Positions 35,127 through 57,427 of a DNA stretch of 64,000 nt are shown here, one piece after another. The translations under genes and the position numbers were made by a program. The stretch comes from Candidatus Methylomirabilales bacterium (GTDB taxonomy: Bacteria; Methylomirabilota; Methylomirabilia; Methylomirabilales; CSP1-5): assembly GCA_050732295.1 (NCBI GenBank), contig JBOHQS010000001.1, forward strand, positions 46,081-110,080, in the 5' to 3' direction. A model generated the notes under the pieces. It saw only the letters and a list, made by a program, of their open reading frames with translations. It did not search any database and was not told the origin of the DNA. The stretch's first letter is position 1, and each line of letters opens with the position of its first letter.

Positions 35127-35658
35127 TCACACAGAAACCGGGATAACTGCGGTCCCGGTCAGAGATGATCCGCTCGCCGGAGGGCCATGTGATGCCGAAC
35201 GCCGGGTCATCCCATCGGATCCCTCTGGCCGCTTCAGGCACGTAAAACTCCGACATCTGGTAGAACACCTCCGTGTTATCCTCGAGGGTCTGAAAGCCGT
35301 GGCCGAGACCCTCGGGAATATAGAGCGCCTTACGGTTTTCAGCCGAAAGGACCACGGCACTATGCTGCATGAAAGTCGGGGATTCCGGTCGGAGATCTAT
35401 TATGACATCATAGATTGACCCCATGGTACAGCGGGCGAGCTTTGCTTCTTGATGGGGTTTGATTTGGTAGTGCATTCCTCTTAAGGTACCCTTCTTTTTG
35501 TTGTAAGAAATACTACACTGCACCAGGTTTGGATTGAGTCCATATTCCTCAAATTCTCGCTGGCACCAGACGCGAGCGAAGAATCCCCGTTCATCCTCGC
35601 GTCTTTCGGGCTCGATGATGAAGGCGTTTTTGAGTCTTGTTTCAGAGAACATCATCAA
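35113..35658 (-). CDS. rfbC: NDP-4-keto-6-deoxyhexose 3,5-epimerase (RmlC cupin family)
   Basis: 181 aa, with GTLRGMHYQ, GSIYDVIIDLRPESPTF, LYIPEGLGHGFQTL and IRWDDPAFGITWP. Confidence 0.85.
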   Translation of the reverse strand: MMMFSETRLKNAFIIEPERREDERGFFARVWCQREFEEYGLNPNLVQCSISYNKKKGTLRGMHYQIKPHQEAKLARCTMGSIYDVIIDLRPESPTFMQHSAVVLSAENRKALYIPEGLGHGFQTLEDNTEVFYQMSEFYVPEAARGIRWDDPAFGITWPSGERIISDRDRSYPGFCVSAVA

Positions 35659-36884
35659 TAGACCCGCACCTCAGGGATGGGGACAACGAACTTTCCACCC
35701 CAGTCACGGATATAGGCCGCCTGTTCCATGATTTCATCCTTGATGTTCCACGGCAGAATCAATACGTAGTCCGGCATCGTCTCCTGGATTTTTTTTGGAT
35801 GATAGATCGGAATACGTGTACCTGGGAGGAAATGGCCCTGTTTGTGGGGACTCCGGTCAACGGTATAATCAATGAAATCCGACCGGATGCCGCAATAGTT
35901 TAACAGGGTATTCCCTTTTGCCGCTGCGCCATACGCGACGATCGACTTCCCCCCTTCCTTTGCCCCAATCAGGAACGCCAGAAGCCTGCGTTTTGTCTCT
36001 TTTACCTTGTTGGCAAACGAAAGATAGCATTCCACACGGGAATATCCCGCAGCTTCCTCTTCGCCAAGCAGATCTGTGACGCGCTCGCTTAGTGGATTTG
36101 ACCTGTCCTGCATATGACATGCATAAATCCTTAAGGAGCCACCGTGCGTGGGAAGTTCTTCGACATCGAAGAGGGTCAGACCTTGCTTGGTGAAGACCTT
36201 TTTGACTGTGATAAGGGAAAAATATGAGAAGTGTTCATGGTAGATGGTGTCGAACTGGTTCTCTGCGATCAAGCGCATCAGATGGGGAAATTCCATCGTG
36301 ATGACGCCCTGGGGGTTCAGGAGCATCTTCATGCCCATGACAAAATCATTGAGATCGGGCACGTGGGCTAGCACGTTGTTTCCCACCAAAAGATCGGCCT
36401 TTATTCCTTGGCCGGCCAGTTCACGGGCCGTTTCCTTCCCGAAGAACTTCACAATCGTTGGGATACCCTTCTTGAGGGCTGCTTCAGCTACATTCTCTGC
36501 CGGCTCTATACCCAGAACAGGTACGCCTCTGGCAACAAAGTATTGAAGCAGGTAACCATCGTTGCTAGCGATTTCTACTACTTGGCTTTGTTCATCCAAC
36601 CCACAACGCTTCACCATCATATCGGTATATGTCCTGGCGTGTTCAAGCCAGGTATCGGAGTACGACGAAAAGTAGCTATAATCACTAAAGATATCCTTAG
36701 GACTTACAACCTCTTCCAGTTGAACCAAGAAACAGCAGTCACACACATACACATGCAGTGGATAGAACGGTTCCATCTGGTTCAGTTGGCTTGGTTTTAG
36801 ATAGGAGTTGGCAAGCGGTGATATACCTAAATCAACAAAGGTATGTTCTAAAATCGACCCACAAAACCGACAACCAGACATCAT
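35655..36884 (-). CDS. NDP-hexose C-methyltransferase (TylC3-like: zinc-ribbon, class I MT and C-methyltransferase C-domain)
   Basis: 409 aa, with CRFCGS...CDCCFLVQL, VVEIASNDGYLLQ, NNVLAHVPDLNDF and DTIYHEHFSYFS. Confidence 0.8.
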   Translation of the reverse strand: MMSGCRFCGSILEHTFVDLGISPLANSYLKPSQLNQMEPFYPLHVYVCDCCFLVQLEEVVSPKDIFSDYSYFSSYSDTWLEHARTYTDMMVKRCGLDEQSQVVEIASNDGYLLQYFVARGVPVLGIEPAENVAEAALKKGIPTIVKFFGKETARELAGQGIKADLLVGNNVLAHVPDLNDFVMGMKMLLNPQGVITMEFPHLMRLIAENQFDTIYHEHFSYFSLITVKKVFTKQGLTLFDVEELPTHGGSLRIYACHMQDRSNPLSERVTDLLGEEEAAGYSRVECYLSFANKVKETKRRLLAFLIGAKEGGKSIVAYGAAAKGNTLLNYCGIRSDFIDYTVDRSPHKQGHFLPGTRIPIYHPKKIQETMPDYVLILPWNIKDEIMEQAAYIRDWGGKFVVPIPEVRVY

Positions 36885-36997
36885 GACGTCACCATTAATA
36901 AGGTGCCAACGCTAGCTTGAATCCGCTGGCTGCATGGCATTCGCGGATGAAGGTCGAAACTTGGAAAGGCCGTTCTTGAGCCTTTGCAGTCACTCAC

Positions 36998-38020
36998 CTA
37001 CTTCCAAAAGAAACGGTCGTCAATCTGCCGTGTCTTGATAAGATGTTCAAGCTGTTTAATGCGCGTAAACGTTCTAAATTCAAAGGTTTCACGCGACAGG
37101 TTTATCCTTTCAAACAGTTCGAGAAGCTCCATTACGCCACTCATGGAATCTCTGCGGCATCGAAATCCGGGGAGCTGGGTGTTAATTTTGTCAAAGCAAA
37201 CCCGATAGGTACGGTTATCTCTATTGTTCACACCAAGTGTCAACTTGCATCCCGGAAAGACGCGAGCAACGATTTCAGCGATCTCTTTAACCTGGTAGTT
37301 CTCCTTGGTATCCCCAACATTGAAGATTTGGTCGTGCACAACCTCCCTAGGTGCATCTAAGGCGCAAGCGATGGCCTCGCAAATGTCAAGCACATGCACT
37401 AAGGGGCGCCACGGTGTTCCATCGCTTGTCATCCGAATTTCCTTCGTTGTCCAGGCCCAACCAGCCAAGTTATTCAGGACGAGGTCAAATCGCATTCTCC
37501 GAGAAGGGCCGTAAGCGGTCGCATTCCGGAGAAATGTGGGCGAAAAGTCATCATCAGCCAGCTCCGACACATCCCGCTCCACCAGGACCTTACATCTTGC
37601 GTATGCAGTTTGTGGGCTCGTCGGAGACTGCTCTGTTTGGTATGTCTCTGAGCCCATGCCATACACACTGCAAGAGGACGTGTACACAAATCTCTGAATG
37701 CCCGCTACCTTGCACTTTCTTGCCAAATTCACGGCGCCCCTGTGATTAATGTCGTACGTAATCCTAGGGTTCAATTGCCCCAGGGGATCATTTGACAGCT
37801 CGGCGAGGTGGACGACCGCATCAAACCCGCCTAGATCCTCTTTCGTGATCCGGCGGACGTCCTTTCTGATGCAGGGCGCAGCTGAGTGAATACCGTCGTA
37901 CAGCGCACCGTCCAAGTAGAAGCCCGTGTCGAGCCCCCCCACGTGATGGCCTCGTTCGACAAGATACGGAGTCAGCACTGATCCAATATATCCCTCTGCA
38001 CCTGTGACAAGGATGTTCAT
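36998..38020 (-). CDS. NAD-dependent epimerase/dehydratase (extended SDR)
   Basis: 340 aa, with MNILVTGAEGYIGSVL, TSSCSVYG and YARCKVLVE. Confidence 0.8.
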   Translation of the reverse strand: MNILVTGAEGYIGSVLTPYLVERGHHVGGLDTGFYLDGALYDGIHSAAPCIRKDVRRITKEDLGGFDAVVHLAELSNDPLGQLNPRITYDINHRGAVNLARKCKVAGIQRFVYTSSCSVYGMGSETYQTEQSPTSPQTAYARCKVLVERDVSELADDDFSPTFLRNATAYGPSRRMRFDLVLNNLAGWAWTTKEIRMTSDGTPWRPLVHVLDICEAIACALDAPREVVHDQIFNVGDTKENYQVKEIAEIVARVFPGCKLTLGVNNRDNRTYRVCFDKINTQLPGFRCRRDSMSGVMELLELFERINLSRETFEFRTFTRIKQLEHLIKTRQIDDRFFWK

Positions 38021-38066
38021 GATCTTTTTTTCTTGTAAGGAGGTACAGTTACCGCTCGCCGAGGCT

Positions 38067-38915
38067 TTATGCGCTTGATTCTACGGTATGCCCGTGCTGG
38101 AGGAAATTGACAGCTCGCACGAGGTCTTCCGGCGTCCCAATGTCCAGCGGAGGACTGTCGGACACAGGTATTCCCTCCACACACAAGCCATTCTCAATTG
38201 CTGCTTGGATAACATCGCCAAGAAACAATTCCGTCCTCAGTGGTTCCGATTTTTCCACAACGCCCAAATACTCGTGCATGAAGTTCGTAAAGGCTGGCGT
38301 CCACACTGCGATCATCCAACTATGGGTCAATTCGGTGTCGCGCGTCTTTATAACTATTTGTCGTACCCGACCGGCATGGTCCAGTTCTACCATATCTCCC
38401 TTCTCGGGCTGATCATCGGGAAAAAGTCCCAACACAACATCGGCGCCGCTTGCCTGTTGCTGCGCTAGTATCCGAACGTAGACATCCTCTGGCTCAAGAA
38501 GAACGTCGGGAAAGCCCACAGCGACGAGTTTGTCCTTCACAAAGGCGTGCGCTTGATCTAGGGTGTAAGGGACACCATACGGTAGGTTCATCATTAGATA
38601 CGCCAGATGCATATCTGCCAGAGCGCCATCACCTAAATAGGCCGGAATGTCCCACTTCCCCTCCCGCAGGATTATGTAGGCCTCTGTAATCCCGGCGAGT
38701 CGCATTTTTTCTAGCAAATAGTGACAGATAACCTTCGGACGTACAATGTGATCTCCATCAACATCCCGAAAGCCGATAGGATACAATTCTTTGCTGCAGG
38801 GTAATGGACTAATTCGCGTCGCATGCCCCGCTGCTGGGATCAGCCCAATAACTTCACGGCTTACCTTTGGGGGGCCATGATCCCTCATAGCTCGGTTCAT
38901 TTCCATATCTTCCAC
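38067..38915 (-). CDS. sugar-phosphate nucleotidyltransferase (RmlA/GalU-like fold)
   Basis: 282 aa, with VIGLIPAAGHATRISPLPCSKELYPIG. The start is uncertain: the ATG at 38900 would give an ATGA overlap with the rfbF stop. Confidence 0.7.
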   Translation of the reverse strand: MEDMEMNRAMRDHGPPKVSREVIGLIPAAGHATRISPLPCSKELYPIGFRDVDGDHIVRPKVICHYLLEKMRLAGITEAYIILREGKWDIPAYLGDGALADMHLAYLMMNLPYGVPYTLDQAHAFVKDKLVAVGFPDVLLEPEDVYVRILAQQQASGADVVLGLFPDDQPEKGDMVELDHAGRVRQIVIKTRDTELTHSWMIAVWTPAFTNFMHEYLGVVEKSEPLRTELFLGDVIQAAIENGLCVEGIPVSDSPPLDIGTPEDLVRAVNFLQHGHTVESSA

Positions 38916-39670
38916 GGAGGATTACCAGACACCCACAGCTCCTCAAGAAAATTCTTTTCCTTTAGCGTATCCATGCATGACCAAAATCCATAATGCCGAT
39001 AGCCCATAAGTTGCCCATCGTGTGCAAGTCGTTCTACTGACTCACGCTCCCAAATCGTCTCATCGCTGTCGATGTAATCAATAACCTTTCGATTCAGCAC
39101 GAAAAACCCCCCATTGATCCAGCCCTCACTGCTTTCAGATTTCTCATAAAACTCGGTCACCAGGTCATCCTTAAATGTGAGTCGTCCAAACCGGGCAGGC
39201 GGGCGTACTGTGGTAACTGTTGCCAGTTTTCCATGTTCGTTGTGGAATTTCAGCAAAGCGGTAATATTGAGGTCCGCCACCCCGTCTCCGTAGGTAAACA
39301 TGAAGGTGTCGTCACTCTCCAGCCACTGTTGCAATCGCTTGAGGCGCCCACCAGTCTGGGTGTATAAGCCGGTATCGACTAGGTGGATTCTCCAACTCGG
39401 TTGATTGCCATCGTGAATCGTGGTTTCCCCACTCGAGAGGTCAACCGAGATGTCGTTATTGAGGGCATAAAAGTTAAGGAAATATTCTTTGATAATCTCT
39501 CCTTTGTATCCAAGGGCGATTATAAACTCTGTTATGCCGTTAGCTGCATAGATATTCATAATGTGCCATAGTATGGGCTTCCCGCCAATTTCCACCATTG
39601 GCTTTGGCTTCAGGATTGTCTCTTCGGATAACCGAGATCCAAAACCACCGGCCAGGATAATTGCTTTCAT
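38897..39670 (-). CDS. rfbF: glucose-1-phosphate cytidylyltransferase
   Basis: The sequence MKAIILAGGFGSRLSEETILKPKPMVEIGGKPILWHIMNIYAANGITEFIIALGYKGEIIKEYFLNF is classic RfbF. The preferred start is the ATG at 39670, preceded by GAGAGGAAAATTC, which gives 257 aa. The ORF track extends it to 39757, across the upstream stop. Confidence 0.9.
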   Translation of the reverse strand: MKAIILAGGFGSRLSEETILKPKPMVEIGGKPILWHIMNIYAANGITEFIIALGYKGEIIKEYFLNFYALNNDISVDLSSGETTIHDGNQPSWRIHLVDTGLYTQTGGRLKRLQQWLESDDTFMFTYGDGVADLNITALLKFHNEHGKLATVTTVRPPARFGRLTFKDDLVTEFYEKSESSEGWINGGFFVLNRKVIDYIDSDETIWERESVERLAHDGQLMGYRHYGFWSCMDTLKEKNFLEELWVSGNPPWKIWK

Positions 39671-39686
39671 GAATTTTCCTCTCAGG

Positions 39687-41423
39687 TCACGCGTCCTTGA
39701 GAATTTCTGGATGTAGCTCAGCGGGGTAAATGAACTCGTCACCATTGAGTATGCCATTGCAAATCACGTCGAGACCCACGCTCCGGCCCGGCAACAGGTC
39801 ATCAATACCAGACAACTCAAGCTTGAAAGGCGGCCAACCAGAAGTTGGCACCATAAAAGGCAAAGGAATCCCCATGCGGCGGAAGAAGAAATGGTAGGCA
39901 TACTTCCGCGCCCGTTGGGTAACCGCCTCACTCAGCCTCTCTTTCAGAGGCAGCCGATCCAACAGTTTGAAGTATTCTTCATGAGAGCTGGCATCCAAGG
40001 TCACGCCCTTGTTGCGGATCCACGCCTCTCCGGCAACGATCACAGGAATACCCATGCTTGCTAACTCAACGCCGGTCTGGGTACCGTAGATGATCACGGT
40101 GTCGCATTTCAACATGGTGGCATAGGTACTGATCGTGCTATCGGGCGGAATGATAAAGACATTCTTTGGCAATGTGGGAAAAGCCTGCTTGATCTCATCT
40201 ATAATTGGCTGGCGCGAAAGGTGGGTCCCGCGTACTTCGGCGGGATGCACGCGAACAATGAGTTGCAAGTCCGCGCGATCGGAGAAGTAACGAATTGTTT
40301 CCAGCGCCCACTCCAACATGTTACGGAATGCAGTTCCCCGATACAAGACTTGACCTTCCCACACGATGTTGGTCAGCATCCCGATACACGGCTTAGAGAA
40401 ATCTATGCCAAACTTCGCAGCGATAGCAGAGACGTCATCCTGTGGGGTTTCCACATACGAGAGCCAGTCATGAGTTCCATACCAGCGGCTTTTAACATAG
40501 TTCAGTATCTCCGCCTCCATCTCTGGCGTCCAGGTCATGTTCTCCCAGTACGTTGTTGGCTCAAACAATAGAGTGTGGTGGAAAGATTTATGATGACTGA
40601 AAACGAACGACTGCTTGCGGTAGGCCGCATTCCAGTTCACAACCCGCACCTTTTGTTCGCGAGCTACCTCACCGATCGAGCCTATAGGGACATACAATCC
40701 GTCGATGGCACATACACATGTAAAGGAGATGGTGTTCATCAGGCGGTGAGACGCGAACGCTGTCAGCAATGATGCATTGAAGTAGCGGCGCAATACAGCT
40801 TCCCCAAGCGGCACACCCTCCAGGTTGCCCCGCACGTAGAAACGCAACGCACCAGCAAGTGCGTGTTTACCTACTGCCACACCGTCCAAACGGTATTCTT
40901 CAATCTCAGTAATCGGAAGATGTGACGACACATCACGAGCCTTTTCAAATTCCTCAGTCGAGATAAACTCGCTGTAGCGATGAGTCGGCAGGCCAAAGGA
41001 CTCAAACGTCTTATGCGATGGAGAGAAACATGTCCCACACAGACGCCGCGATGGACCGAACTTGACAAGCTCCTCTGGCTGTAGATTATCGATGTTAGAG
41101 GCCGAGCAAGCGGGTAGGGCCTGGTCACAAAGTAGTATATGGACCCACGCTCCACGTAACGTCAAAGCCACCGCGAGCATACTGTTAACAAGAGTCGACT
41201 GAGTCTCGATGCCCGTCTGGTTTGCAAGCAGAACTCTTGGGCCATTCTTTGCAACAGCACTGGCAGATTCCCACCGAGCCGCATCCCGGGCTAAGAGACG
41301 TGCCCAATCCGGGTGCACAGACCTCCTCAATGCGGATTCCGCATGCGGATACAGCCCCAGGGATATTAATATTCTTTTCACCCTGGCTTTCACTGGCCGA
41401 GGCACCAGGGCCTTTATCATCAT
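39687..41423 (-). CDS. capsule-polysaccharide-biosynthesis-like protein (KpsS/KpsC, PF05159-like C-terminal region); putative glycosyltransferase
   Basis: 578 aa. The C-terminal part has VRVHPAE...IIPPDSTISTYATMLKCDTVIIYGTQTGVELASMGIPVIVAGEAW. The family call is from motif resemblance only. Confidence 0.5.
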   Translation of the reverse strand: MMIKALVPRPVKARVKRILISLGLYPHAESALRRSVHPDWARLLARDAARWESASAVAKNGPRVLLANQTGIETQSTLVNSMLAVALTLRGAWVHILLCDQALPACSASNIDNLQPEELVKFGPSRRLCGTCFSPSHKTFESFGLPTHRYSEFISTEEFEKARDVSSHLPITEIEEYRLDGVAVGKHALAGALRFYVRGNLEGVPLGEAVLRRYFNASLLTAFASHRLMNTISFTCVCAIDGLYVPIGSIGEVAREQKVRVVNWNAAYRKQSFVFSHHKSFHHTLLFEPTTYWENMTWTPEMEAEILNYVKSRWYGTHDWLSYVETPQDDVSAIAAKFGIDFSKPCIGMLTNIVWEGQVLYRGTAFRNMLEWALETIRYFSDRADLQLIVRVHPAEVRGTHLSRQPIIDEIKQAFPTLPKNVFIIPPDSTISTYATMLKCDTVIIYGTQTGVELASMGIPVIVAGEAWIRNKGVTLDASSHEEYFKLLDRLPLKERLSEAVTQRARKYAYHFFFRRMGIPLPFMVPTSGWPPFKLELSGIDDLLPGRSVGLDVICNGILNGDEFIYPAELHPEILKDA

Positions 41424-41472: not shown

Positions 41473-42660
41473 CTAGCCCTCAGTCTCGACTTCATCATAA
41501 AATCTCCCGCCTAACACTCCCGCCACCACTAAATCCTGAAACTGCTTTTGCCGAGGTGTATCCCACAGTTTCCCATTTCGAAGCTGCTGCACAAAAAGCC
41601 TAGCACTATCGCCATTCCCAAAATACCTCGACACCATACCTCTCTTCGGCAAGTCGTTCAACGCGTGCAAAATTCCCTCCCGGCTTTCTTGCACGTTCAT
41701 TATCGACGCGTGACTAAATCGGTTCATCTGCCGGCTGCCAATATTCACCACCGGCACCCCATATACGGGAGCCTCCCGAATCCCTGCACTCGAATTCCCC
41801 ACAATCGCAACGGCGTTTTTCAAAAGCGTGAGAAAGTACTCAAATCGCATCGATGGAAGTGCCCGAAATCGTCCATTATTTTCAAAGCGTTTAAGAGCTT
41901 CCATAATAATGTCCGCGCCCGTATCGTTGTTTGGATAGATCAAAACAAAATTCAACCCGGACGCCTCCACGGCGTCTAAAATGACTTCAATACGTTTGGG
42001 AAGCAGATGCACCTCGGTCGTTACCGGATGATAAGAGAAGATGCCATATTCTCGGAAATCGATCTCATATCTCTCCTTCACCTCTGACAGACTGGGAAGC
42101 GTATCGGAAAGCATTATATCAATGTCCGGCGACCCAATAACGAAAATCGATCCGGGCACTTCACCCATTTGAATAAGGCGTTTGCGGGCCGCCTCATTCG
42201 AAACAAAGTGTAGGTGTGACAGTTTCGTGACAGCGTGACGAATCAACTCATCAACCGTACCAGACACCTCGCCCCCCTCAATATGACCCACAAGGATGTT
42301 ACTCAATGCGCCCACAATGGCCCCGGCAAGCGCCTCAATACGATCACCATGGACCACGATGAGATCGGCTGGAAATTCCCGAAGATAGTGTCCCAAACCC
42401 TGAATCGTATTTGCGAGCGCAATATCCATCTGCGAATTGATTGAACCGTCTTGATTAATATGTGCATAAATACGTGTGAAGCCCGCCTTGCGGATCTCAT
42501 TAACTGTTGAACCATAGCGGGCCAGCATATGCATACCTGTGACAAAAATATGAGATTCGAACTCATCTGACCTCTCGAGCTCTTCAATCAAGGCCTTCAT
42601 CTTCCCAAAGTCAGCCCGGGTTCCAGTGAGGAAGAGAATTCTCTTTCGAGACATCGTCAC
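41473..42660 (-). CDS. neuC: UDP-N-acetylglucosamine 2-epimerase (hydrolysing), NeuC type
   Basis: 395 aa, with ILFLTGTRADFGKMKALI, VTGMHML, VHGDRIEALAGA and HIEGGEVSGTVDELIRHAVTKLSHLHF. Confidence 0.85.
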   Translation of the reverse strand: MTMSRKRILFLTGTRADFGKMKALIEELERSDEFESHIFVTGMHMLARYGSTVNEIRKAGFTRIYAHINQDGSINSQMDIALANTIQGLGHYLREFPADLIVVHGDRIEALAGAIVGALSNILVGHIEGGEVSGTVDELIRHAVTKLSHLHFVSNEAARKRLIQMGEVPGSIFVIGSPDIDIMLSDTLPSLSEVKERYEIDFREYGIFSYHPVTTEVHLLPKRIEVILDAVEASGLNFVLIYPNNDTGADIIMEALKRFENNGRFRALPSMRFEYFLTLLKNAVAIVGNSSAGIREAPVYGVPVVNIGSRQMNRFSHASIMNVQESREGILHALNDLPKRGMVSRYFGNGDSARLFVQQLRNGKLWDTPRQKQFQDLVVAGVLGGRFYDEVETEG

Positions 42661-42695: not shown

Positions 42696-43730
42696 TCATT
42701 CCAGGTCGGACCATTTTATCTGACTATCCCTCGGGATATATCTTCGTACCCTTTTTCCTAACAAGCTCTCGAAATGAGCAGCCTTAATCTCGCCAGTCCC
42801 CGGTCTTTTGACCCAGATGTTATCTCTGGTAAGCTCCTCTCCAGGTTGAATGACTCGTGTGGACACAGCGCACGCATACGCAAAGTGAATGGTCGGCTGT
42901 TCCTCGGGTAGAATGTCTTTGGTTCCCGCAAGAGCCATGTAAATGGCCCGCGACCCTTCAATTAGATCTCTCAATTCAGACGGGCCAATCGAAATCGGAA
43001 CGTCTGGCCCGGGCCAGCTCTTATCCGCGGTGAAATGCTTCTCCAAAACGCTCGCCCCCAACGCTACGGCGGCAAAGCAGCTGTAATTTCCTAACGAATG
43101 ATCACTCAGGCCAATTACCGCGTCCGGGAAGTGCCTTGCCAATTCCTGCAATGCTCCCAGCCTGACTTTGTCGTACGGAGTGGGATAGATCGAGGTGCAA
43201 TGCATCAGAACAAATCGAACGTTGGCCTCCCGCAGGATTTCAACTGAGGGGGTAATGGTTGACAAGTCGTTCATCCCCGTGCTCAGAATTACGGGTTTCC
43301 CATACGATGCAATATGCCGGATCAGCGGATAATTGTTGCACTCTCCAGACCCAATCTTGTACCCACAAACCTCTATACGGTGTAATCGTTCAGCAGCAGC
43401 TCGGGAAAAAGGGGTACAGAGATAGATCATACCCTTCGCTTCGACGGATTCCTTCAGCCGAACTTCTTCTTCCTCGGACAACGCGCACCGCGACATAATA
43501 TTCCAGATGCTCTCGTTTGCATTGCCTGGAACTACGTCGTTCGGAATCATTTCGTCTTCGATGATATGGCACTGGAATTTCACACACTCACATCCGGCAG
43601 CATACGCATCGTCCACCATGCGCATAGCCTTCTCAATGTTGCCTTCGTGATTGATACCGATTTCGGCAATAACCAAAGGCGGGTGGTTCGGACCAATTGC
43701 ACGATGACCAAGGTGAACTTCAGGTGGCAT
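42696..43730 (-). CDS. neuB: N-acetylneuraminate (nonulosonate) synthase with a C-terminal SAF domain
   Basis: 344 aa, with PPLVIAEIGINHEGNIEKAMRMVDDAYAAGCECVKFQ, YKIGSGE, ILSTGM, LMHCTSIYPTP and GLSDHS. Confidence 0.9.
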   Translation of the reverse strand: MPPEVHLGHRAIGPNHPPLVIAEIGINHEGNIEKAMRMVDDAYAAGCECVKFQCHIIEDEMIPNDVVPGNANESIWNIMSRCALSEEEEVRLKESVEAKGMIYLCTPFSRAAAERLHRIEVCGYKIGSGECNNYPLIRHIASYGKPVILSTGMNDLSTITPSVEILREANVRFVLMHCTSIYPTPYDKVRLGALQELARHFPDAVIGLSDHSLGNYSCFAAVALGASVLEKHFTADKSWPGPDVPISIGPSELRDLIEGSRAIYMALAGTKDILPEEQPTIHFAYACAVSTRVIQPGEELTRDNIWVKRPGTGEIKAAHFESLLGKRVRRYIPRDSQIKWSDLE

Positions 43731-43936
43731 CCTCTACATGCCCCTGGATTTCGAACGTTTAATCAGGGAAGCGGTCGAGGGTCCTGAGTGCGGCACGGCA
43801 ACCCACCGGATACCATGTCCTTGTAGAGATCGCCTACAGGGACTACGACTGCAACGTCAAATGCTTCAAAAAGTCGAAAACGAAGATCGTACTCACGTTG
43901 TCATCCCACGCTTTGTAGCAGCACCGAACGGTCGGT

Positions 43937-44194
43937 CTATGTTCTTGGGAATATCTGGTTTAGCTCTCGAACGAGGTAATTTACCTGTTCTTCGTTGATG
44001 CCGTGCTGTCTCGCACCCAGTGCAATAGAGTCGTAGGTAGAATGGTGGCACCCGAGACAGTATAGTCCATAACGCCGCAGAATCCGTTCCGCTTGATCCC
44101 CATAAGTCTCAATCAAGTCTGCGATAACAGTCTCTTTTCCGATGGGCTTGTGGCTCAGTGGTGGCAGGTCTGCTGGTTTCTTGTAAAGCGACAC
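43937..44194 (-). CDS. DUF1858/'hybrid-cluster-protein-associated redox disulfide' domain protein
   Basis: 85 aa, with VIADLIETYGDQAERILRRYGLYCLGCHHSTYDSIALGARQHGINEEQVNYLVRELN (a CxxC pair). It has a GTG start and a 40-nt overlap with the end of the upstream Rieske/MBL gene. Confidence 0.6.
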   Translation of the reverse strand: MSLYKKPADLPPLSHKPIGKETVIADLIETYGDQAERILRRYGLYCLGCHHSTYDSIALGARQHGINEEQVNYLVRELNQIFPRT

Positions 44195-45768
44195 CAGTAG
44201 CCGATATGTGCCTCATCCCAAGATATGTTTTCACTCACGATACTTGCGAGGATACCGTAGGGGATCTCAATCATTAGATTGGGTAGGCAAGGAGAATCTT
44301 TCAAAATTCGAAGCTCTCCCGCTTCGATTGTGAACGAAACGTCAATTACCCTCGTTTCACAATTTCCCCCAATGGCTCGCAGTCTCACAGTCACATCCTC
44401 ACAAAACGCGATCTCTGGCGTCTCATTCAAACGTAGAAAATATGCTTCCACCCCGGCAGGGCTTAGGTCTGCCGAGACGGGGTAGTGTTTCTCAAATACA
44501 CGGATATCGAAGCACCGTTCCAGGTATTGCAGCTTGTAAGCAAGGTCATAAAAATGCTCTCGACAGATGCCAAGACGCGCAATGCGCTCGACCGCGATGT
44601 CCCAGCTTTCTCCGGGCAAAAGATCGATCACGTGAATGCCGGTTCCCTCAAAGCCCCGTACGACGTCGTCCAGGGTGTTCGTCCTCATCATCGACACGTA
44701 CTCGCGGTGTGAGGGATGCCAGAGTGCGAAGTGTGAGGCAAGAGGGAGCAAATACTTCGCCTTGTACAGGTCCATTGCCTCCCGCAGCATCTGAAGCATT
44801 CCTTGGCAGGCCCGTTTCATAATGTGAACCTTCTCGGCCTCCGTCAGGTGCGTCCAAGTTAATGGATAGCCCGATGCTCCTATGGAGAACTGGGATGCTA
44901 CGACATCGACAGGGGCGACAAGTGACGCGATGCGCCGGTTGAGGCCGGCGTCATTGATATTGAGAAGACGAAGGCCATCGATCTCCACCAAAACAATGGC
45001 ATCGTTCCACAAACTTCCAGGCTCGAAGCACGTAAGCTTAAAATTGTCAGATACCTCGTACATCTTGCCGAAAGTCATGGGGTACACGTTTAGGAACCCA
45101 AGCACCGCCAGACGCTCGACAAGCCGACGATTTGGAAAGTCAGGCACGTAAATGGGCGTCCTGCGTTGAAACTTTCTCAAGGTGGGTTCATGAAAATGGT
45201 CTGAGTGCTCGTGCGTAATCACAATGGCATCCGGACGCAATGTGGAGACATCTACGACAGGAGGGGGATATTGCGTCCAAGAGCCAAGGAAAGCCGGACC
45301 ACATAGCCAGGGATCCGTAAGAAGCGAAAACCCTTTATACACGATCTCGAGGCAAGCATGTGCGCGCAAGTGAATTGTCAGTTGATCTAGCCGCTTGATC
45401 CTTTGTGCCATTGGAGCGGCCGGTACCGAAGGCAAGGACACCTCGGCAAAGAGATGCCCCTCCCGAACGGTCACGGGGACAGATGACAACTTTCCGGTGT
45501 TGTTTATGCCCTTTCCTGTGGCATGTTCAAAGCGCCAGCCGTGTTGTGAGCACTCAAAATACGAACCTACATTAGCAACCTCACCTCCTTGGTGAGGGCA
45601 GACGGTGGAAAGGAGCTGATAACCTGTCTCCCCGCACACAAGATAATGCGGCCTGTTTCCCAAGAAAATCCGAGTCGGTAGCTCTGTGAAAGATGTTTCA
45701 GCACCTAGGTCGACCGGCTTGTTTTTCGGTGTCTTAGCTTCGTCTTGCCTGCTGCTCAATCTATCCAT
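44155..45768 (-). CDS. Rieske [2Fe-2S] plus metallo-beta-lactamase-fold oxygenase resembling CMP-N-acetylneuraminate hydroxylase (CMAH)
   Basis: 537 aa. The Rieske motif is CPHQGGEV...x17...CSQHGWRF and the MBL-like motif is ITHEHSDHF. Blocks recalled from animal CMAH are AHACLE (THACMD), TDPWLCGPAF (FDPWLIGPAF), PTLRKF...PIYVPD (PTLKQL...PIYVGD), GASGYP (GASGFP) and WDEAHIGYW (WDDLYIGFQ). Confidence 0.75.
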   Translation of the reverse strand: MDRLSSRQDEAKTPKNKPVDLGAETSFTELPTRIFLGNRPHYLVCGETGYQLLSTVCPHQGGEVANVGSYFECSQHGWRFEHATGKGINNTGKLSSVPVTVREGHLFAEVSLPSVPAAPMAQRIKRLDQLTIHLRAHACLEIVYKGFSLLTDPWLCGPAFLGSWTQYPPPVVDVSTLRPDAIVITHEHSDHFHEPTLRKFQRRTPIYVPDFPNRRLVERLAVLGFLNVYPMTFGKMYEVSDNFKLTCFEPGSLWNDAIVLVEIDGLRLLNINDAGLNRRIASLVAPVDVVASQFSIGASGYPLTWTHLTEAEKVHIMKRACQGMLQMLREAMDLYKAKYLLPLASHFALWHPSHREYVSMMRTNTLDDVVRGFEGTGIHVIDLLPGESWDIAVERIARLGICREHFYDLAYKLQYLERCFDIRVFEKHYPVSADLSPAGVEAYFLRLNETPEIAFCEDVTVRLRAIGGNCETRVIDVSFTIEAGELRILKDSPCLPNLMIEIPYGILASIVSENISWDEAHIGYWCRFTRNQQTCHH

Positions 45769-45864: not shown

Positions 45865-46686
45865 CTACCATGCCGTCCATCCTCCGTCGACCACCAAGTT
45901 GTGTCCTGTGCAATAGGCGGAAGCAGATGAGGCAAGGTATACCACAGCGCCTCGCATCTCCTCTTCGTGTGCCATCCGACCGATTGGACTCAGCCTGGCA
46001 TAGCGGCTGACAAACGGATCACGGTGCCCATTGTACACCCCCCCGGGGGTAATCGAGTTTACACGAACTCCTTGGTCTGCCCATAATGTTGCCAGGTAGC
46101 GCGTCAGGGCGACCACACCCGCCTTACTGACAGAGTAGGCTACCGGCTGATGAATTCCGGTATCAGGGTACAAGCGATGATTCGGGCTGACGACACCATA
46201 AAGTGACGCGATGTTAATGATGCTGCCAGAGTGCTGTTCGAGCATCTGCCGGCCTACAACCTGGCAACCTAGGAAGGTTCCGCTGAGATTGACTTCAAGA
46301 ATTTGATGCCAGTCTTCCAGCGGAAAATCCACAAAAGGCGCGTTGAAGTTCGGTGAACGCGACTGGGTGGTAAAGGCTGCATTGTTGACAAGAATATCCA
46401 CGCGACCAAACTGAGACAACACGCGCTCTAGCAACGCCTGCCACGAAGCCTTTTGTGTGACATCACAGGGCAGTCCTACGGCTTGAACTGGATTCTTCGC
46501 CGCAATCTGACTGGCACGTTGGTCGCATATCTCACCCTTCAGGTCTGTCAACACGACAGTTGCTCCAAGGTCGCTGAGCGCAATGGCATGTTGCTCACCC
46601 AGTAGCCCGGCCGCACCCGTGATAATTGCTACTTGTCCATCGAGCCGGAACAGATCGGCAGTCCCCATCGCACCGTGTGGTTTCAT
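45865..46686 (-). CDS. short-chain dehydrogenase/reductase (PtmA-like, nonulosonic-acid-cluster type)
   Basis: 273 aa, with AIITGAAGLLGEQHAIAL, VNNAA and YSVSKAGVVAL. Confidence 0.8.
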   Translation of the reverse strand: MKPHGAMGTADLFRLDGQVAIITGAAGLLGEQHAIALSDLGATVVLTDLKGEICDQRASQIAAKNPVQAVGLPCDVTQKASWQALLERVLSQFGRVDILVNNAAFTTQSRSPNFNAPFVDFPLEDWHQILEVNLSGTFLGCQVVGRQMLEQHSGSIINIASLYGVVSPNHRLYPDTGIHQPVAYSVSKAGVVALTRYLATLWADQGVRVNSITPGGVYNGHRDPFVSRYARLSPIGRMAHEEEMRGAVVYLASSASAYCTGHNLVVDGGWTAW

Positions 46687-47399
46687 TACCTAAGCTCCTG
46701 CAGTCGCATCAAATGCTCCACTAGAAAAAAATCGAATTCACTATCTATGTCGATGGCGCGTTCGCGAGGGATCACCTGGATCTGCACTCTTGCCTCCGAC
46801 CAGTGCTCATGCTTCCACAGGGCATCACGAAGAATGGCATACACAGCAGGCGACAGATTGTACACCGGAGGCGCGTCCTGCCGACGGGTAATTGGCTTGG
46901 CTGACTCTTTAACGATCTTTGCAAAGCCGTCAGCATTTAACTCAATCATGTTGAAGTAGGGGTTTCGCTCGGCCTTGTATGCAGTTACAACTACCTCAGC
47001 CTGGCCTGAGAGAAGTTGGTCCACACAACGCACGATGTCGGACGGCTGCCGGAGTGGCACGCCCGCGTCCAGATCAACGAGGACGTCGACCGCCCGCCCG
47101 GTCATCTGTTCCATCGTCTGCACAAGGTGCTGAAAGACCTGCCATTTCGGCGAGTCATCTTGGGCTAAATGAGCGGGCCGAATGAAGGGGACTTCGGCCC
47201 CATGTTTTTTTGCTACCTCAGCAATCTCCTCATCATCAGTAGATACGACAATTCGATGCAAAACTGGGCAAGCTTGTGCGCATCGGATCGTATGCACAAT
47301 CAGGGGTATGCCTCCAAGAGGGATCAAGTTCTTTCGCCGTACCCCTTTCGAGCCTCCACGGGCACAAATGGCGCCAACAATCACCGCGCCTTCCTTCAT
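46686..47399 (-). CDS. neuA: acylneuraminate cytidylyltransferase (CMP-nonulosonic acid synthetase)
   Basis: Motifs are AICARGGSKGVRRKNLIPLGGIPLIVHTI and RRQDAPPVYNLSPAVY. The preferred start is the ATG at 47399 (MKEGAVIV), which forms an ATGA overlap with the upstream stop. The ORF-track start at 47513 would overlap the upstream gene by 118 nt. Confidence 0.85.
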   Translation of the reverse strand: MKEGAVIVGAICARGGSKGVRRKNLIPLGGIPLIVHTIRCAQACPVLHRIVVSTDDEEIAEVAKKHGAEVPFIRPAHLAQDDSPKWQVFQHLVQTMEQMTGRAVDVLVDLDAGVPLRQPSDIVRCVDQLLSGQAEVVVTAYKAERNPYFNMIELNADGFAKIVKESAKPITRRQDAPPVYNLSPAVYAILRDALWKHEHWSEARVQIQVIPRERAIDIDSEFDFFLVEHLMRLQELR

Positions 47400-48385
47400 G
47401 ACATTACCGATACCTTTCCCGTCAACGCAGATTCTTTGGCTGCCAGTGCTAGCTTCAGAACCTGGCTTCCTGCGAACGCGTCCACTTTCGGCAGTTCTTG
47501 CCCTCGCACGCACGCAATTACATGTTTCATTTCTGCTATAAAGCGATCGTTCCTTTCATAGCCAGGGTACTCGAACTCTTCCCAACGACGCTTTCCTGCC
47601 GTGGTTGCGTCGTACCACGAAACCTTCTTGCCGTAATAGTCCCAGAAAATCGTCCCTCCTTCGCCGATGACGCGACAGGTACGACTGGGGATATGCTGAA
47701 TATAATCCAGGTGTACTGTACCGATGGCTCCATTTTCAAACCTTAACAATATTGCGGCCGTGTCTTCTGTCTCAATTTCCAATCCACTGACTTTATCGGC
47801 AAAACAAGCAACGGCATGGACCGGTCCAATCAGCCAACTCACGTAGTCCAACTCATGGATCAAGTCGAAAATTACCCCTCCCCCTGTTTTAATATGCGCA
47901 CTTATCCCTTTCCGGTAATCCTCCGATGGTTTCCAATCGGGTAAGTATTGTCCTACTTGGGCTTGGATCGCTACCACACGTCCAATAGAACCCACGTCAA
48001 GGATCGATTTTACCTTGCATAGTCCGGGGTCGAACCGTAAGTCAAAACCCACTAGAGTCAATAGATTGTTCTTCCGGACCATCGACAGCATCTCTTCCAC
48101 TCCATCCCAAGAATGGGACAGCGGCTTTTCGATAAAGAGGTTGCATCCAGCCTGCGCAGCAGGTAGGGCTACTTCCAGATGCTGAGCCGTTGGGTTACTC
48201 ACGATGACGATGTCCGGCTTCACCCCTAGCGCATCTCTAAGGTCTGTAAAGACGGCCAAGTCTGGTGCCTCCTTGAGCCGATCAGGACGAGTCCGGTAGA
48301 GCACGATATCGCTCATCCCTAATTGCCGTAGGTTGAGCAAATGCCGACGCCCAATTGAGCCTACGCCTGCTATTAGAATACGCAA
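47396..48385 (-). CDS. Gfo/Idh/MocA family oxidoreductase
   Basis: 329 aa, with MRILIAGVGSIGRRHLLNL and LFIEKPLS. Confidence 0.85.
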   Translation of the reverse strand: MRILIAGVGSIGRRHLLNLRQLGMSDIVLYRTRPDRLKEAPDLAVFTDLRDALGVKPDIVIVSNPTAQHLEVALPAAQAGCNLFIEKPLSHSWDGVEEMLSMVRKNNLLTLVGFDLRFDPGLCKVKSILDVGSIGRVVAIQAQVGQYLPDWKPSEDYRKGISAHIKTGGGVIFDLIHELDYVSWLIGPVHAVACFADKVSGLEIETEDTAAILLRFENGAIGTVHLDYIQHIPSRTCRVIGEGGTIFWDYYGKKVSWYDATTAGKRRWEEFEYPGYERNDRFIAEMKHVIACVRGQELPKVDAFAGSQVLKLALAAKESALTGKVSVMS

Positions 48386-51798: not shown

Positions 51799-53157
51799 TC
51801 AGCTATCTTCATCCTCATCAGCTCTGTTGAATCCGGACGCAGAGAAATCCTCAGCAGGATTCTTGTGGGGAATTAGTTCCCACGCGTGCGGAGCGATCAC
51901 GCTACCCCACTTGGACTTGGGCAAATCTGTAAAGCCGCTATCACCGCCGTCAATGACGGTAATCCTTGCCGCGCGGCTTACATAGTCAGCTTGTCCTTGA
52001 GCATCCTTAATAGAGACATCGGCCCAATACACGCCGGGAATCAAGGGTAAATTCTTAATTCTGCAAATGACTTGCCCTCTTGGGGCGGAGTGCCGGAAAT
52101 TGGAATTTGTCATGCCTGTGCTGAAGGAGATCAAATTAACACCCTGAGTGTCTGTCACTGTGATTCCGACATACAAATGTAACAGCGGTTGTTCTTCTCT
52201 GGCGCTATAGCCGACGATGAATTCAGTATCACCGCCAGTACGCGGAGGGCTGAAGCGATCTGCGCAAGCCCTGGCCTCAAATGTCACCACACGCACATTC
52301 CCACTTCCAAACCTATCTTGTCGTTCAGTCAAGTCTGCATAGGGCGCTCCGTTATCAGAATAAGTGGTGATCAGGTATTCCTGAATAGCATCATCCGTTG
52401 TTCCTGACAATTGAATGTGGCCTTCCCGAAGAAGGAGGGCACGCGAGCAAAGATTACGCACTGCCCCCATATTATGACTCACAAACAACACGGTCCGTCC
52501 TTGTTTGGCCACATCCCCCATCTTGCCCAGACACTTCTTCTGAAACTGCGCATCCCCGACCGCCAGCACCTCATCTACGATCAAGATCTCCGGCTCCAGG
52601 TGCGCAGCCACGGCGAAGGCGAGACGCACATACATGCCGCTGGAGTAGTGTTTCACCGGCGTGTCAATAAACTTCTCTACCCCGGAGAAATCCACGATTT
52701 CATCGAATTTCCGATCGATCTCGGCGTTCCTCATCCCCAGGATGGCGCCATTCAGGTACACGTTCTCGCGGCCGGTCAGCTCTCGATCGAAACCCGTACC
52801 TACCTCCAGCAAGCTCCCCACCCTGCCGTATATCTCGGCCCGTCCAGCGGTTGGCTCGGTGATGCGTGAGAGGATCTTGAGCAGCGTACTCTTGCCGGCC
52901 CCGTTAGGTCCGATGATACCCAGCGTTTCGCCCTGTTTGACGGTGAAGGAGACGTCCTTGAGGGCCCAAATATACTCGGAAGACGGGAGACCGGAGACGG
53001 GGGACCGGGACGAGCTAGGACCGGAGACCGGAGACCGGGAGTGGCAGAAGAGGCCAGTGAGGCCAGAAGTGAGCAGGTCCTTGAGGCGGTCGTGGCGCCT
53101 GATCCCGATCTTGTATTGTTTCGAAAGATTTTCGACGCGAATGGCAATCTGGCTCAC
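51799..53157 (-). CDS. wzt: polysaccharide ABC exporter ATP-binding protein with a C-terminal glycan-binding (Wzt_C-like) domain
   Basis: 452 aa with a GTG start preceded by GGAG. Walker A is GPNGAGKST, the signature is [12 protein letters not shown] and Walker B is [12 protein letters not shown]. An extra ~190-aa beta-rich C-domain follows. The N-terminal low-complexity insert [21 protein letters not shown] is encoded by repeats. Confidence 0.9.
52977..53041. repeat. CGGAGAC/GGAGACC heptamer tandem arrays inside the wzt 5' coding region
   Basis: The sequence is gggagac cggagac gggggac cgggacg agcta ggaccggagaccggagaccgggag. It translates (minus strand) to [21 protein letters not shown]. Confidence 0.75.
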
Positions 53158-53167
53158 GGGAGCTCCG

Positions 53168-53654
53168 ATTTCGAATTGCGAATTTCGAATTTCGAATTTA
53201 GGTGCGAATTGTTAATTTCCACTTTTGGATTTCGGGTTAAATAGTGCAAGATTCAGCTCCGGCGAAACTTGGATGTTTTCCCGATGCTTGTAAATATCGC
53301 AAGCAACTCGGGCGACTCCTCGAGCAGCCGCCGCCGGTCTTCAGGCCTGCCAATGTTGGACTCGCTGAGGAGCTCTAACCAATACTGTGTTTCTGCTGCC
53401 TCCTTTTCGACGATGGCGATCTTGTGGATAAAGTCACTCTTGGACTGGGCCCTATTGGCCTCACGATAATTAGCCCCAACCGACGTTCCCGACTTCAACA
53501 ATTGTGTTCCCAATGTGTGAGTCACTTTATCCGGGGATAGCCCAGCCACAAATGCGACCACCTTCAATGCAAATGCTTTTGTCCGTCTCTCTAGCTCAGC
53601 CTTATCCACGGCCGCTTCTTGACAATTCCAAATTCGAAATTCGCAATTCGAAAT
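53168..53654 (-). mobile_element. inverted-repeat-bounded four-helix-bundle gene cassette inserted exactly between wzm and wzt
   Basis: The 25-nt atttcgaattgcgaatttcgaattt (53168-53192) is the perfect reverse complement of aaattcgaaattcgcaattcgaaat (53630-53654). Pairing extends to ~31 bp with one mismatch (53168-53198 with 53624-53654). The right arm ends at the wzm stop codon and the left arm ends ~6 nt before the wzt RBS. The mobile nature is inferred; no transposase is present. Confidence 0.6.
53253..53609 (-). CDS. four-helix-bundle protein (23S rRNA intervening-sequence protein / Avd-like family)
   Basis: 118 aa, with ERRTKAFALKVVAFV, QLLKSGTSVGANYREANRAQSKSDFIHKIAIVEKEAAETQYWLELL. These are hallmark motifs of the family as I recall it. 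Confidence 0.85.
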   Translation of the reverse strand: MDKAELERRTKAFALKVVAFVAGLSPDKVTHTLGTQLLKSGTSVGANYREANRAQSKSDFIHKIAIVEKEAAETQYWLELLSESNIGRPEDRRRLLEESPELLAIFTSIGKTSKFRRS

Positions 53655-54488
53655 TCAAATGATGTCGGCAAAGGTACGTTCCATCTGCTTGAAGTAAACG
53701 ATCCCCGCGAACAGTAATGCCAGTACGACGACGGCGCCAACCGCCATCACCCCGAAATCCGGGCTCTGGGTTCCTAGCATCGCCCAGCGAAAGCCCTCGA
53801 TGACGCCGACCATGGGGTTCAGGCTGTACAACAGTCGCCATTTTTCCGGGACCAGGCTGACCGGGTAGATAACCGGCGAGGCGTACATCCAGAATTGGGT
53901 CACGAAGGGGATGATATAGCCCACATCCCGGTACTTGACGTTCAGGGCCGAGAGAAACAGACCCACCGCCAAGGCCGTCATGAAGGCCACGAGCAGGAAG
54001 AGGGGCAGAGCCAATACGGCCCAGGTGGGAGTGATACCGTACCAGACCGTCAAGCCCACCAGGATCACGAAGGACAACCCGAAATCGACGAGAGGGGTCA
54101 CGATGGAAGCCAAAGGAATGATCAGCCGCGGAAAGTAGACCTTGCTGATCAAGTTCGCGCTACCCACCAGGCCTCCCCCTCCACGGCTGAGGGCCTGGCT
54201 GAAATAGGTCCACGGCAGCAGGGCCGTGTAGGCAAAGATGGGATACGGCACCCCGTCCGAGGGGATCTTGGCTAGATAGCTGAAGATGACGGTGAAGATC
54301 ATCATGGTGAGCAACGGTTGGAGGATGACCCAGCCGGCACCGATCACCGTCTGCTTGTAGCGAACCTTCACGTCCCGCCACACCAAGAAATAAAGCAGCT
54401 CGCGGTATTGCCATACGGCCCCGAGATCCATGTGGAAGAGGCGCCTTCGGGGCTCGATCACAACAGTGGGAATGCTTATGTCTCGCAC
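53655..54488 (-). CDS. wzm: polysaccharide ABC exporter permease (ABC-2 type)
   Basis: 277 aa with six hydrophobic segments. Motifs are RELLYFLVWRDVKVRYKQTVIGAGW and NPMVGVIEGFRW. It has a GTG start preceded by AGGAG. Confidence 0.9.
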   Translation of the reverse strand: MRDISIPTVVIEPRRRLFHMDLGAVWQYRELLYFLVWRDVKVRYKQTVIGAGWVILQPLLTMMIFTVIFSYLAKIPSDGVPYPIFAYTALLPWTYFSQALSRGGGGLVGSANLISKVYFPRLIIPLASIVTPLVDFGLSFVILVGLTVWYGITPTWAVLALPLFLLVAFMTALAVGLFLSALNVKYRDVGYIIPFVTQFWMYASPVIYPVSLVPEKWRLLYSLNPMVGVIEGFRWAMLGTQSPDFGVMAVGAVVVLALLFAGIVYFKQMERTFADII

Positions 54489-57425: not shown

Positions 57426-57427
57426 GA

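Follow-up and report, generated by a model that had tools for sequence, protein, structure and literature searches.

Synthesis of N-glycolylneuraminic acid (Neu5Gc), a xeno-antigen in humans, is treated as a deuterostome trait. We analyzed a stretch of 64,000 nucleotides from a Candidatus Methylomirabilales bacterium (contig JBOHQS010000001.1, positions 46,081 to 110,080; hereafter the window), in which a gene resembling that for the animal enzyme CMAH, the hydroxylase of CMP-N-acetylneuraminic acid (CMP-Neu5Ac), lies among neu genes for sialic acid synthesis. The explanation that we favor, with reasonable though far from complete confidence, is that this gene, one for a bacterial CMAH-family monooxygenase, is present as an allele truncated by a frameshift, and that the surrounding CMP-Neu5Ac module is otherwise intact and forms part of a glycan cluster exported by an ATP-binding cassette (ABC) transporter. 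CMAH itself is a recognized oxygenase of the metallo-beta-lactamase (MBL) fold, of unsolved structure, that is stimulated by cytochrome b5 (PMC4819959). Likewise, we found no CMAH structure in the PDB.

The existence of prokaryotic CMAH homologues is not new. Simakov et al. 2015 reported them, as did Peri et al. 2018, the latter for ~60 prokaryotes (PMC5767959), and many of the top database matches of the window protein, which are bacterial, carry the IMG name CMP-N-acetylneuraminate monooxygenase. Among 10 distant representatives that were looked up, the entries were either metagenome proteins without a name or carried this IMG name. An earlier annotation of the window, made from its letters alone (the first-pass annotation), had presented such homologues as uncharacterized. 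This held up, in that a search of full-text literature, with most subscription journals outside its coverage, yielded no paper in which a bacterial hydroxylase of CMP-nonulosonates is characterized or its neu linkage analyzed. A related reaction is described in mycobacteria, where NamH, a hydroxylase of UDP-N-acetylmuramic acid (UDP-MurNAc) with Rieske and MBL-superfamily (UlaG-like) domains, makes N-glycolyl muramic acid (PMC10050696). By its published description NamH resembles the clade of the window protein (group A, below) as a prokaryotic Rieske and MBL enzyme that converts N-acetyl to N-glycolyl on a nucleotide sugar (PMC10050696). The substrate of NamH, UDP-MurNAc, belongs to peptidoglycan synthesis, whereas the context of the window gene is a neu and glycan cluster. 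Tannerella forsythia UB4 possibly has N-glycolyl legionaminic acid, as inferred by mass (PMC5378307).

The CMAH-like gene and its 58-nt deletion

The open reading frame (ORF) that the first-pass annotation had placed at 44155-45768 is real and is on the minus strand, as are all window features given below unless otherwise stated. It encodes 537 aa comprising a Rieske [2Fe-2S] domain, an MBL-fold domain and most of a CMAH-specific C-terminal domain. The Rieske motif and the subsequent HxHxDH-type motif that had been read from the sequence were both recovered, as Pfam domains and as ligand residues, and the Rieske and MBL-superfamily Pfam matches all exceeded their gathering thresholds. The Rieske domain (aa 31-90, 45499-45678; PF00355, 25.5 bits against a cut-off of 20.3) has the ligands C57 and H59 (C57-P-H59) and C73 and H76 (C73-S-Q-H76), and in sequence comparison it also matches the Rieske ferredoxin T4moC. 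Its spacing is CxH-x13-CxxH, with 10 residues separating CPHQGG and CSQHGW and not the 17 first given. The x13 spacing was found in 115 of the 118 bacterial sequences with the motif (window included), whereas animal CMAH has x18, so that the window loop is 5 residues shorter. The MBL-fold domain (aa 135-319, 44812-45366; PF12706/PF13483, Lactamase_B_2/B_3) contains H186-x-H188-x-D190-H191 (H186-E-H-S-D-H191), D256 and D273, which presumably form a non-heme (di)iron site. The C-terminal domain (aa 320-530, 44179-44811) includes the near-invariant H351 and W517-D-E-A-H-I-G523 and is cut short at R530; the last 7 residues of the ORF (NQQTCHH) are out of frame and are followed by a premature stop at 44155. 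When the window protein was aligned with 53 bacterial homologues and 8 animal sequences (62 in all), the invariant positions included all four ligands of the Rieske cluster, H137, DPWxxGxA, HxHxDH, D256 and D273, and H351 was nearly invariant.

DNA alignment of the window with the two best relatives (L010 and L014) revealed a single clean gap directly after CGCTTTACAAG (44190-44180; CRFTR), with well-conserved flanks. At this junction (44179..44180), 58 nt of the relatives are missing from the window. A loss of 58 nt is of the 3n+1 type and shifts the frame after codon 530. The codons removed are those for SPDVYHAGFWRLLQAPYY in the relative P0003, and the near-invariant strand-helix element PDxYHxGFWRLLQ is deleted from the window copy. 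F527 and W528 (P0003 numbering), both absent from the window, were invariant in all other bacterial and animal sequences compared. Animal CMAH keeps the same segment in the form PDxYHxxFW..Q, a C-terminal element of the CMAH family that the window ORF lacks.

The rest of the gene is still present downstream. In tblastn, full-length homologues matched the window in two frames, with residues to ~524 in the annotated frame and residues ~526-614 in a second frame at 43949-44212. The out-of-frame remainder of the gene (43937-44194) holds an intact DUF1858/TIGR03980 redox-disulfide domain (~43958-44143, YCLGCHHS), which scored 50.3 bits with TIGR03980 (cut-off 44.95) and 30.7 bits with PF08984. Because this domain is undecayed, the deletion event looks recent.

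Few proteins make up the CMAH-like family around the window protein: of 1.84 billion cluster representatives searched, 119 had E <= 1e-30. None of the 119 closest homologues is truncated as the window copy is. Lengths of 599-664 aa were found for 117 of them, the other two being N-terminally short and without the Rieske motif, and the CxGC motif of the C-terminal DUF1858/TIGR03980 CxxC domain was likewise present in 117 of 119. The WDE motif is followed by at least 109 residues in all 119 closest homologues with the motif and by 20 in the window. The window ORF has neither the in-frame DUF1858 nor the length of ~600-660 aa that mark group A. An AlphaFold2 (AF2) model of the intact P0003 protein had a predicted local distance difference test (pLDDT) score of 89.9 and a predicted template-modeling (pTM) score of 0.90, with averages of 95 and 91 for residue blocks 511-520 and 521-530. 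In this model the deleted part is a confident strand and helix, the linker of residues 538-544 is disordered, and DUF1858 folds as a helical domain of its own.

Two further ideas about the junction were considered and rejected. Programmed frameshifting or re-initiation might have rescued DUF1858; however, no X XXY YYZ slippery heptamer was present in the frame-overlap region 44157-44215, and no credible restart was found, the sole in-frame start for the downstream domain being a GTG at 44194 whose nearest GAGG is ~16 nt upstream, an unconvincing start signal. The rescued frame would still lack 19 conserved residues. A deletion between repeats resembling 'cggctactg' had been hinted at by the overlapping tblastn matches and was dismissed because the DNA alignment has a single clean gap of 58 nt, directly after CRFTR. 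On the plus strand, an 86-aa ORF (43738-43998), called in Logan assemblies and without a Pfam match, overlaps the out-of-frame DUF1858 remnant; this ORF is probably a spurious call made because the true frame had been orphaned.

The human pseudogene CMAHP was inactivated by a 92-bp exon loss (PMC5767959). Like the window gene, CMAHP and other animal CMAH pseudogenes have been put out of frame by an internal deletion, with the other steps of the sialic-acid pathway still intact. The human deletion is in the Rieske region, whereas that of the window is C-terminal; the analogy is one of outcome only, the window copy being presumably inactive.

Animal CMAH and two bacterial subfamilies

A mouse CMAH sequence was used as bait only, to fetch source-named vertebrate CMAH proteins. 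Compared by BLASTP with the CMAH of Sarcophilus harrisii (P0137, 577 aa), the window protein was 26% identical (E 2e-34) over aa 54-537, aligned with aa 51-552, which is essentially full length and colinear. This similarity to vertebrate CMAH is far above chance. The CMAH blocks that the first-pass annotation had recognized were all in register with the S. harrisii protein, namely HAC, DPWLxGPAF, HxHSDH..PTL, PIYV, GASG[YF]P and WD[DE]xxIG[YF]. Animal CMAH and the window protein have in common the order of Rieske, MBL-fold and C-terminal domains, as well as the invariant residues CxH/CxxH, HAC, DPWLxGPAF, HxHxDH, two Asp, GASG[YF]P and WD[DE]xxIG. The substrate of animal CMAH is CMP-Neu5Ac, and a probable pathway to that compound is encoded beside the window gene. 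Animal CMAH differs in having no DUF1858/TIGR03980 CxxC domain, which intact members of the window's clade carry C-terminally.

These comparisons support a full-length, colinear homologue of CMAH and not a generic Rieske oxygenase or MBL hydrolase. A grouping with unrelated Rieske oxygenases or MBL hydrolases, which the first-pass annotation had named as evidence that would count against its proposal, was not seen, and the CMAH blocks are kept. In the window protein no Pfam match followed the Rieske domain for the ring-hydroxylating alpha-subunit catalytic domain of classical Rieske non-heme iron oxygenases. The best PDB sequence match (E 5e-4) was CmlA, a diiron hydroxylase of the MBL fold whose HxHxDH lined up with that of the window protein. 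Foldseek, run with the AF2 model, matched UlaG, FrsH, CmlA and NAPE-PLD in the MBL core only. A generic MBL hydrolase and a classical Rieske dioxygenase were both rejected on the basis of Pfam, the CMAH alignment and Foldseek. CmlA and FrsH, which were among the Foldseek matches at E ~1e-9 to 1e-10, are known O2-activating diiron beta-hydroxylases that share the MBL fold with the window protein; unlike it, they have no Rieske domain and act on carrier-protein-bound amino acids, and the likeness is confined to the MBL core (query-normalized TM-score, the template-modeling score, ~0.29). Because the Rieske domain is kept and the nearest solved MBL-fold relatives include these diiron hydroxylases, the protein would belong with the oxygenases and not the hydrolases.

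The window protein was 68-69% identical to its nearest relatives, P0002 and P0003, and a scan of GTDB returned no genome of its own species, the best CMAH-like match there being 54% identical to it. Two bacterial subfamilies could be distinguished. Group A, the window's clade, consists of DUF1858-bearing proteins of ~600-660 aa that are 22-27% identical to vertebrate CMAH; in its intact members an N-terminal Rieske [2Fe-2S] domain precedes the MBL-fold domain (HxHxDH, D, D, H), and after the CMAH-type C-terminal domain comes DUF1858/TIGR03980 on a flexible tether. Group B proteins (Pannonibacter, Chitinophaga, Flavicella and others) have the same Rieske, MBL and C-terminal architecture as the window protein; unlike group A, they are without DUF1858 and closer to animal CMAH, at ~560-575 aa and 27-41% identity to vertebrate CMAH (23-28% to group A). 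Scores against vertebrate CMAH were 167-343 bits for group B and 67-147 bits for full-length group A. In a neighbor-joining tree, which is a rough one, the animal sequences cluster with group B and the window protein is nested in group A, so that the clade nearest to the animal enzyme is group B and not that of the window. Judged from these sequences, the window protein belongs to the CMAH family broadly defined, in a sister subfamily.

The group-B gene of Pannonibacter indicus adjoins neuB, neuC and neuA. Group-B loci were also found in GTDB genomes (L027-L035 and L046). Among these, a copy on a contig of an 'Enterobacterales' metagenome-assembled genome (MAG; L030:4660-6429) is ~40% identical to vertebrate CMAH, which is relevant to the proposal that animals acquired the CMAH gene horizontally.

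The sialic-acid module and linkage to neu genes

The neighbors of the gene are those that had been annotated at first pass, with neuC-neuB on one side and a trio of a short-chain dehydrogenase/reductase (SDR) gene, neuA and an oxidoreductase gene on the other, all on the minus strand. NeuC (41473-42660), the hydrolyzing UDP-GlcNAc 2-epimerase, scored 405.1 bits with TIGR03568 (cut-off 235.9). NeuB (42696-43730; PF03102 and SAF; TIGR03569, 347.7 bits) is of the Neu5Ac synthase type, with 423.6 bits to the Neu5Ac synthase SiaC of N. meningitidis versus 130.7 to the pseudaminic acid synthase PseI. The NeuA-like CMP-nonulosonate synthetase (46686-47399, 237 aa; PF02348), also called as a gene in the Logan assembly L001, may instead start at an upstream GTG at 47513, and its best PDB matches were CMP-Neu5Ac synthetases. 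No aminotransferase/acetyltransferase set is adjacent to the module. Since NeuB and NeuA are of the Neu5Ac type and such a set is lacking beside them, the predicted product of the NeuC-NeuB-NeuA module is most likely CMP-Neu5Ac, the substrate of CMAH. The SDR oxidoreductase (45865-46686) and the GFO/IDH/MocA oxidoreductase (47396-48385) are kept beside neuA in related clusters. The trio that they form with the CMP-nonulosonate synthetase (45865-48385) recurs beside neu genes at L010:3835-6355, L019 and L016, which suggests further redox tailoring of the sugar, conceivably an epimerization. Just downstream of neuC, a 578-aa protein (39687-41423) has a weak match to Capsule_synth (KpsC/KpsS-like; PF05159, 24.7 bits) and is a candidate transferase for the CMP-sugar.

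Linkage to neu genes was evaluated at 25 group-A loci, combining GTDB genome loci and metagenome contigs and including the window; there were at least 424 GTDB matches, and the best 80 were inspected. NeuB and neuC were both present within 10 kb at 10 of the 25 loci, with neuA detected in nine of these. The ten are from Thermoleophilaceae, a Bacteroidetes MAG, Alkalicoccobacillus murimartini, Lysinibacillus sp., Haliangium and Vicinamibacterales, together with L022, the P0003 locus, the P0011 locus and the window. Two further loci (P0002 and P0049) have adjacent neuC and neuA. In the neighbor-joining tree the linked loci are scattered through the group-A clade and come from several phyla. A random 20-kb window would be expected to contain neuB in well under 1% of cases by our estimate, and for this reason the enrichment is strong. 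These data indicate that the neu linkage of group A is real but not universal. The first-pass annotation had also held that homologues unlinked to neu genes in other genomes would speak against it; linkage was instead found in several phyla.

The type strain Alkalicoccobacillus murimartini DSM 19154 has an intact 617-aa group-A gene (L017:9986-11839) in a flagellin glycosylation island (L017:4447-14734). The genes there are, in order, those for flagellin, a Maf-like nonulosonate transferase, a methyltransferase, an ATP-grasp protein, the CMAH-like protein, NeuA, NeuC and NeuB.

At two other loci the gene is present as a remnant or is split. In the Dehalococcoidia MAG H63_664 (DAOUAM010000025.1), a 46-aa CMAH-like C-terminal remnant, LQRIVRENLSWDEAHIGYWCRFSRDPDVYHAGFWRLLQAP, was found at L009:9998-10138. 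It is 83% identical to residues 493-538 of P0003 and is preceded by stop codons; neuB and neuC follow it, and neuA is upstream. This remnant may mark a further case, independent of the window, in which a neu cluster has lost the gene. On a metagenome contig (ENA ERZ25039531 contig_19326; L097:9559-11410), a relative with 69% identity is split into overlapping ORFs of 162 aa (Rieske) and 469 aa (MBL and DUF1858), by either a frameshift or a long-read indel error. In that cluster the order of genes for a GHMP kinase, an NTP-transferase/SIS protein, a HAD protein and a transaldolase matches that of the window at 54.8-58.4 kb.

The 64 kb of the window form a single cluster of co-directional glycan genes, all on the minus strand and with no marker gene among them, which encodes many glycosyltransferases and Wzm/Wzt ABC export. 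Wzm is encoded at 53655-54488 and Wzt, with a Wzt_C domain, at 51799-53157; a 23S_rRNA_IVP (four-helix-bundle) gene is located between them at 53253-53609. Other features are a GDP-heptose-type pathway with transaldolase (54824-58405), a CDP-sugar route with a C-methyltransferase (35113-39757), a GT2-GT4 fusion (7186-9543) and a GFO-epimerase fusion (5117-7189). In a database search the transaldolase matched uncultured relatives only, at ~80-88% identity, and those with a name were Deltaproteobacteria and Tectomicrobia MAGs. The only three positions at which the window differs from the 17.9-kb Logan assembly L002 (35778, 35792 and 35795) all fall in an 18-nt stretch inside the C-methyltransferase gene, and these clustered differences may stem from recombination over a short patch or from an error confined to this spot.

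Alternative explanations and implications

In the intact enzymes, electrons would enter via the Rieske cluster, perhaps through the CxxC domain (animals use cytochrome b5), and would reduce the non-heme (di)iron center of the MBL domain. The reduced center would then activate O2 and hydroxylate the N-acetyl methyl group of CMP-Neu5Ac, or of a related CMP-nonulosonate, to N-glycolyl. The window copy is most likely inactive or crippled, a recently inactivated allele, and the strain would probably display the unhydroxylated N-acetyl sugar. The first-pass annotation had regarded the locus as a strong lead to a bacterial N-glycolyl sugar. That expectation does not fit a copy that is frameshift-truncated and is missing residues invariant from bacteria to vertebrates; for these reasons the locus more likely represents loss of the tailoring step.

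Several points weigh against our reading of the gene and of its family, and the first of them concern the truncated protein itself. All of its predicted Rieske and MBL metal ligands are kept, and AF2 folded the 537-aa form with a pLDDT of 91.4, confidently to ~aa 530. DUF1858 is absent from animal CMAH and group B, which function or at any rate occur without it, and loss of that domain need not be fatal by itself. The allele also persists in two sampled populations, and the modeled protein might retain residual activity. The 537-aa protein could, therefore, still be an active CMP-Neu5Ac hydroxylase, its C-terminal helix and DUF1858 being dispensable, that uses another electron donor and makes the N-glycolyl sugar. 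We consider this unlikely, although it survives best among the alternatives: the F-W pair invariant in every other sequence examined was deleted along with a confidently structured element, the truncation has no counterpart among the 119 closest homologues, and AF2 confidence is silent on the stability or activity of a truncated form.

The remaining points concern function. The hydroxylase activity of bacterial CMAH-like members is a prediction, and because the window protein is in a sister subfamily, its function is something that we infer from animal CMAH; we likewise infer a diiron over a mononuclear MBL site. No neu genes were present within 10 kb at 13 of the 25 group-A loci. Some of the 13 are glycan clusters, and others, such as those of Brevibacillus parabrevis and P0024, are without glycan context; given that about half of the group-A genes are away from neu genes, the substrate may differ across the family. 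One group-A locus is in a cluster of the legionaminic/pseudaminic acid (Leg/Pse) type, with two aminotransferases and a formyltransferase. Moreover, group A branches apart from the animals and group B, and the MBL-fold diiron enzymes CmlA and FrsH hydroxylate substrates of quite another kind. These observations would suit a second alternative, slightly less probable than the first, by which group A are CMAH-fold oxygenases whose target differs, either in substrate (for example a different N-acyl sugar nucleotide, much as NamH uses UDP-MurNAc) or in position (for example a C-H elsewhere on the nonulosonate), Neu5Gc not being the product even of the intact clusters. What argues against it is that CTP_transf_3, NeuC and NeuB accompany group-A genes repeatedly, in different phyla and at scattered points of the clade, and that the only characterized Rieske and MBL enzymes, CMAH and NamH, both convert N-acetyl to N-glycolyl (PMC4819959; PMC10050696).

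The weakest alternative, an assembly or sequencing artifact that hides a full-length gene, would leave the out-of-frame domain perfectly intact, as observed, and the assembly L001 is 100% identical to the window and may derive from the same material; but two Logan assemblies made from separate runs (L001 and L002) share this junction exactly, the second of them differing from the window at 3 positions in 17.9 kb, making an accident of assembly very unlikely, and a 58-nt loss with no long repeat flanking the junction is atypical of homopolymer or indel error.

With a frameshift-truncated allele as the preferred reading of the window gene, interest lies at the level of the family, an uncharacterized subfamily with a fused redox-disulfide domain that recurs in nonulosonate clusters. 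An N-glycolyl hypothesis for this family is plausible and can be tested. In its widest form, which we put forward tentatively and with less assurance than our reading of the window gene, many phyla may make N-glycolyl nonulosonic acids (Neu5Gc or analogues) de novo by a CMAH-like Rieske/MBL hydroxylase with its own redox-disulfide domain, for use in O-antigen-like polymers and on flagellin. The genes may have been lost recurrently, the 58-nt frameshift, the Dehalococcoidia 46-aa remnant and the split close relative being candidates, in parallel with the repeated losses of animal CMAH.

The window copy is a poor candidate for study because it is frameshifted, and it points to the intact, cluster-embedded copies in cultured bacteria, those of A. 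murimartini DSM 19154 and the Lysinibacillus isolate. Intact relatives elsewhere, including these two in cultured bacilli, offer a better test of bacterial N-glycolyl sialic acids. Should CMAH-like enzymes of bacteria produce CMP-Neu5Gc or N-glycolyl analogues, such epitopes would have a source that is microbial and not dietary. The preparation of Neu5Gc glycans could then draw on a soluble bacterial enzyme, and the account of how the animal CMAH gene arose would have to be revised. The window also shows gain and loss of the tailoring step among close relatives, a pattern typical of surface-antigen variation.

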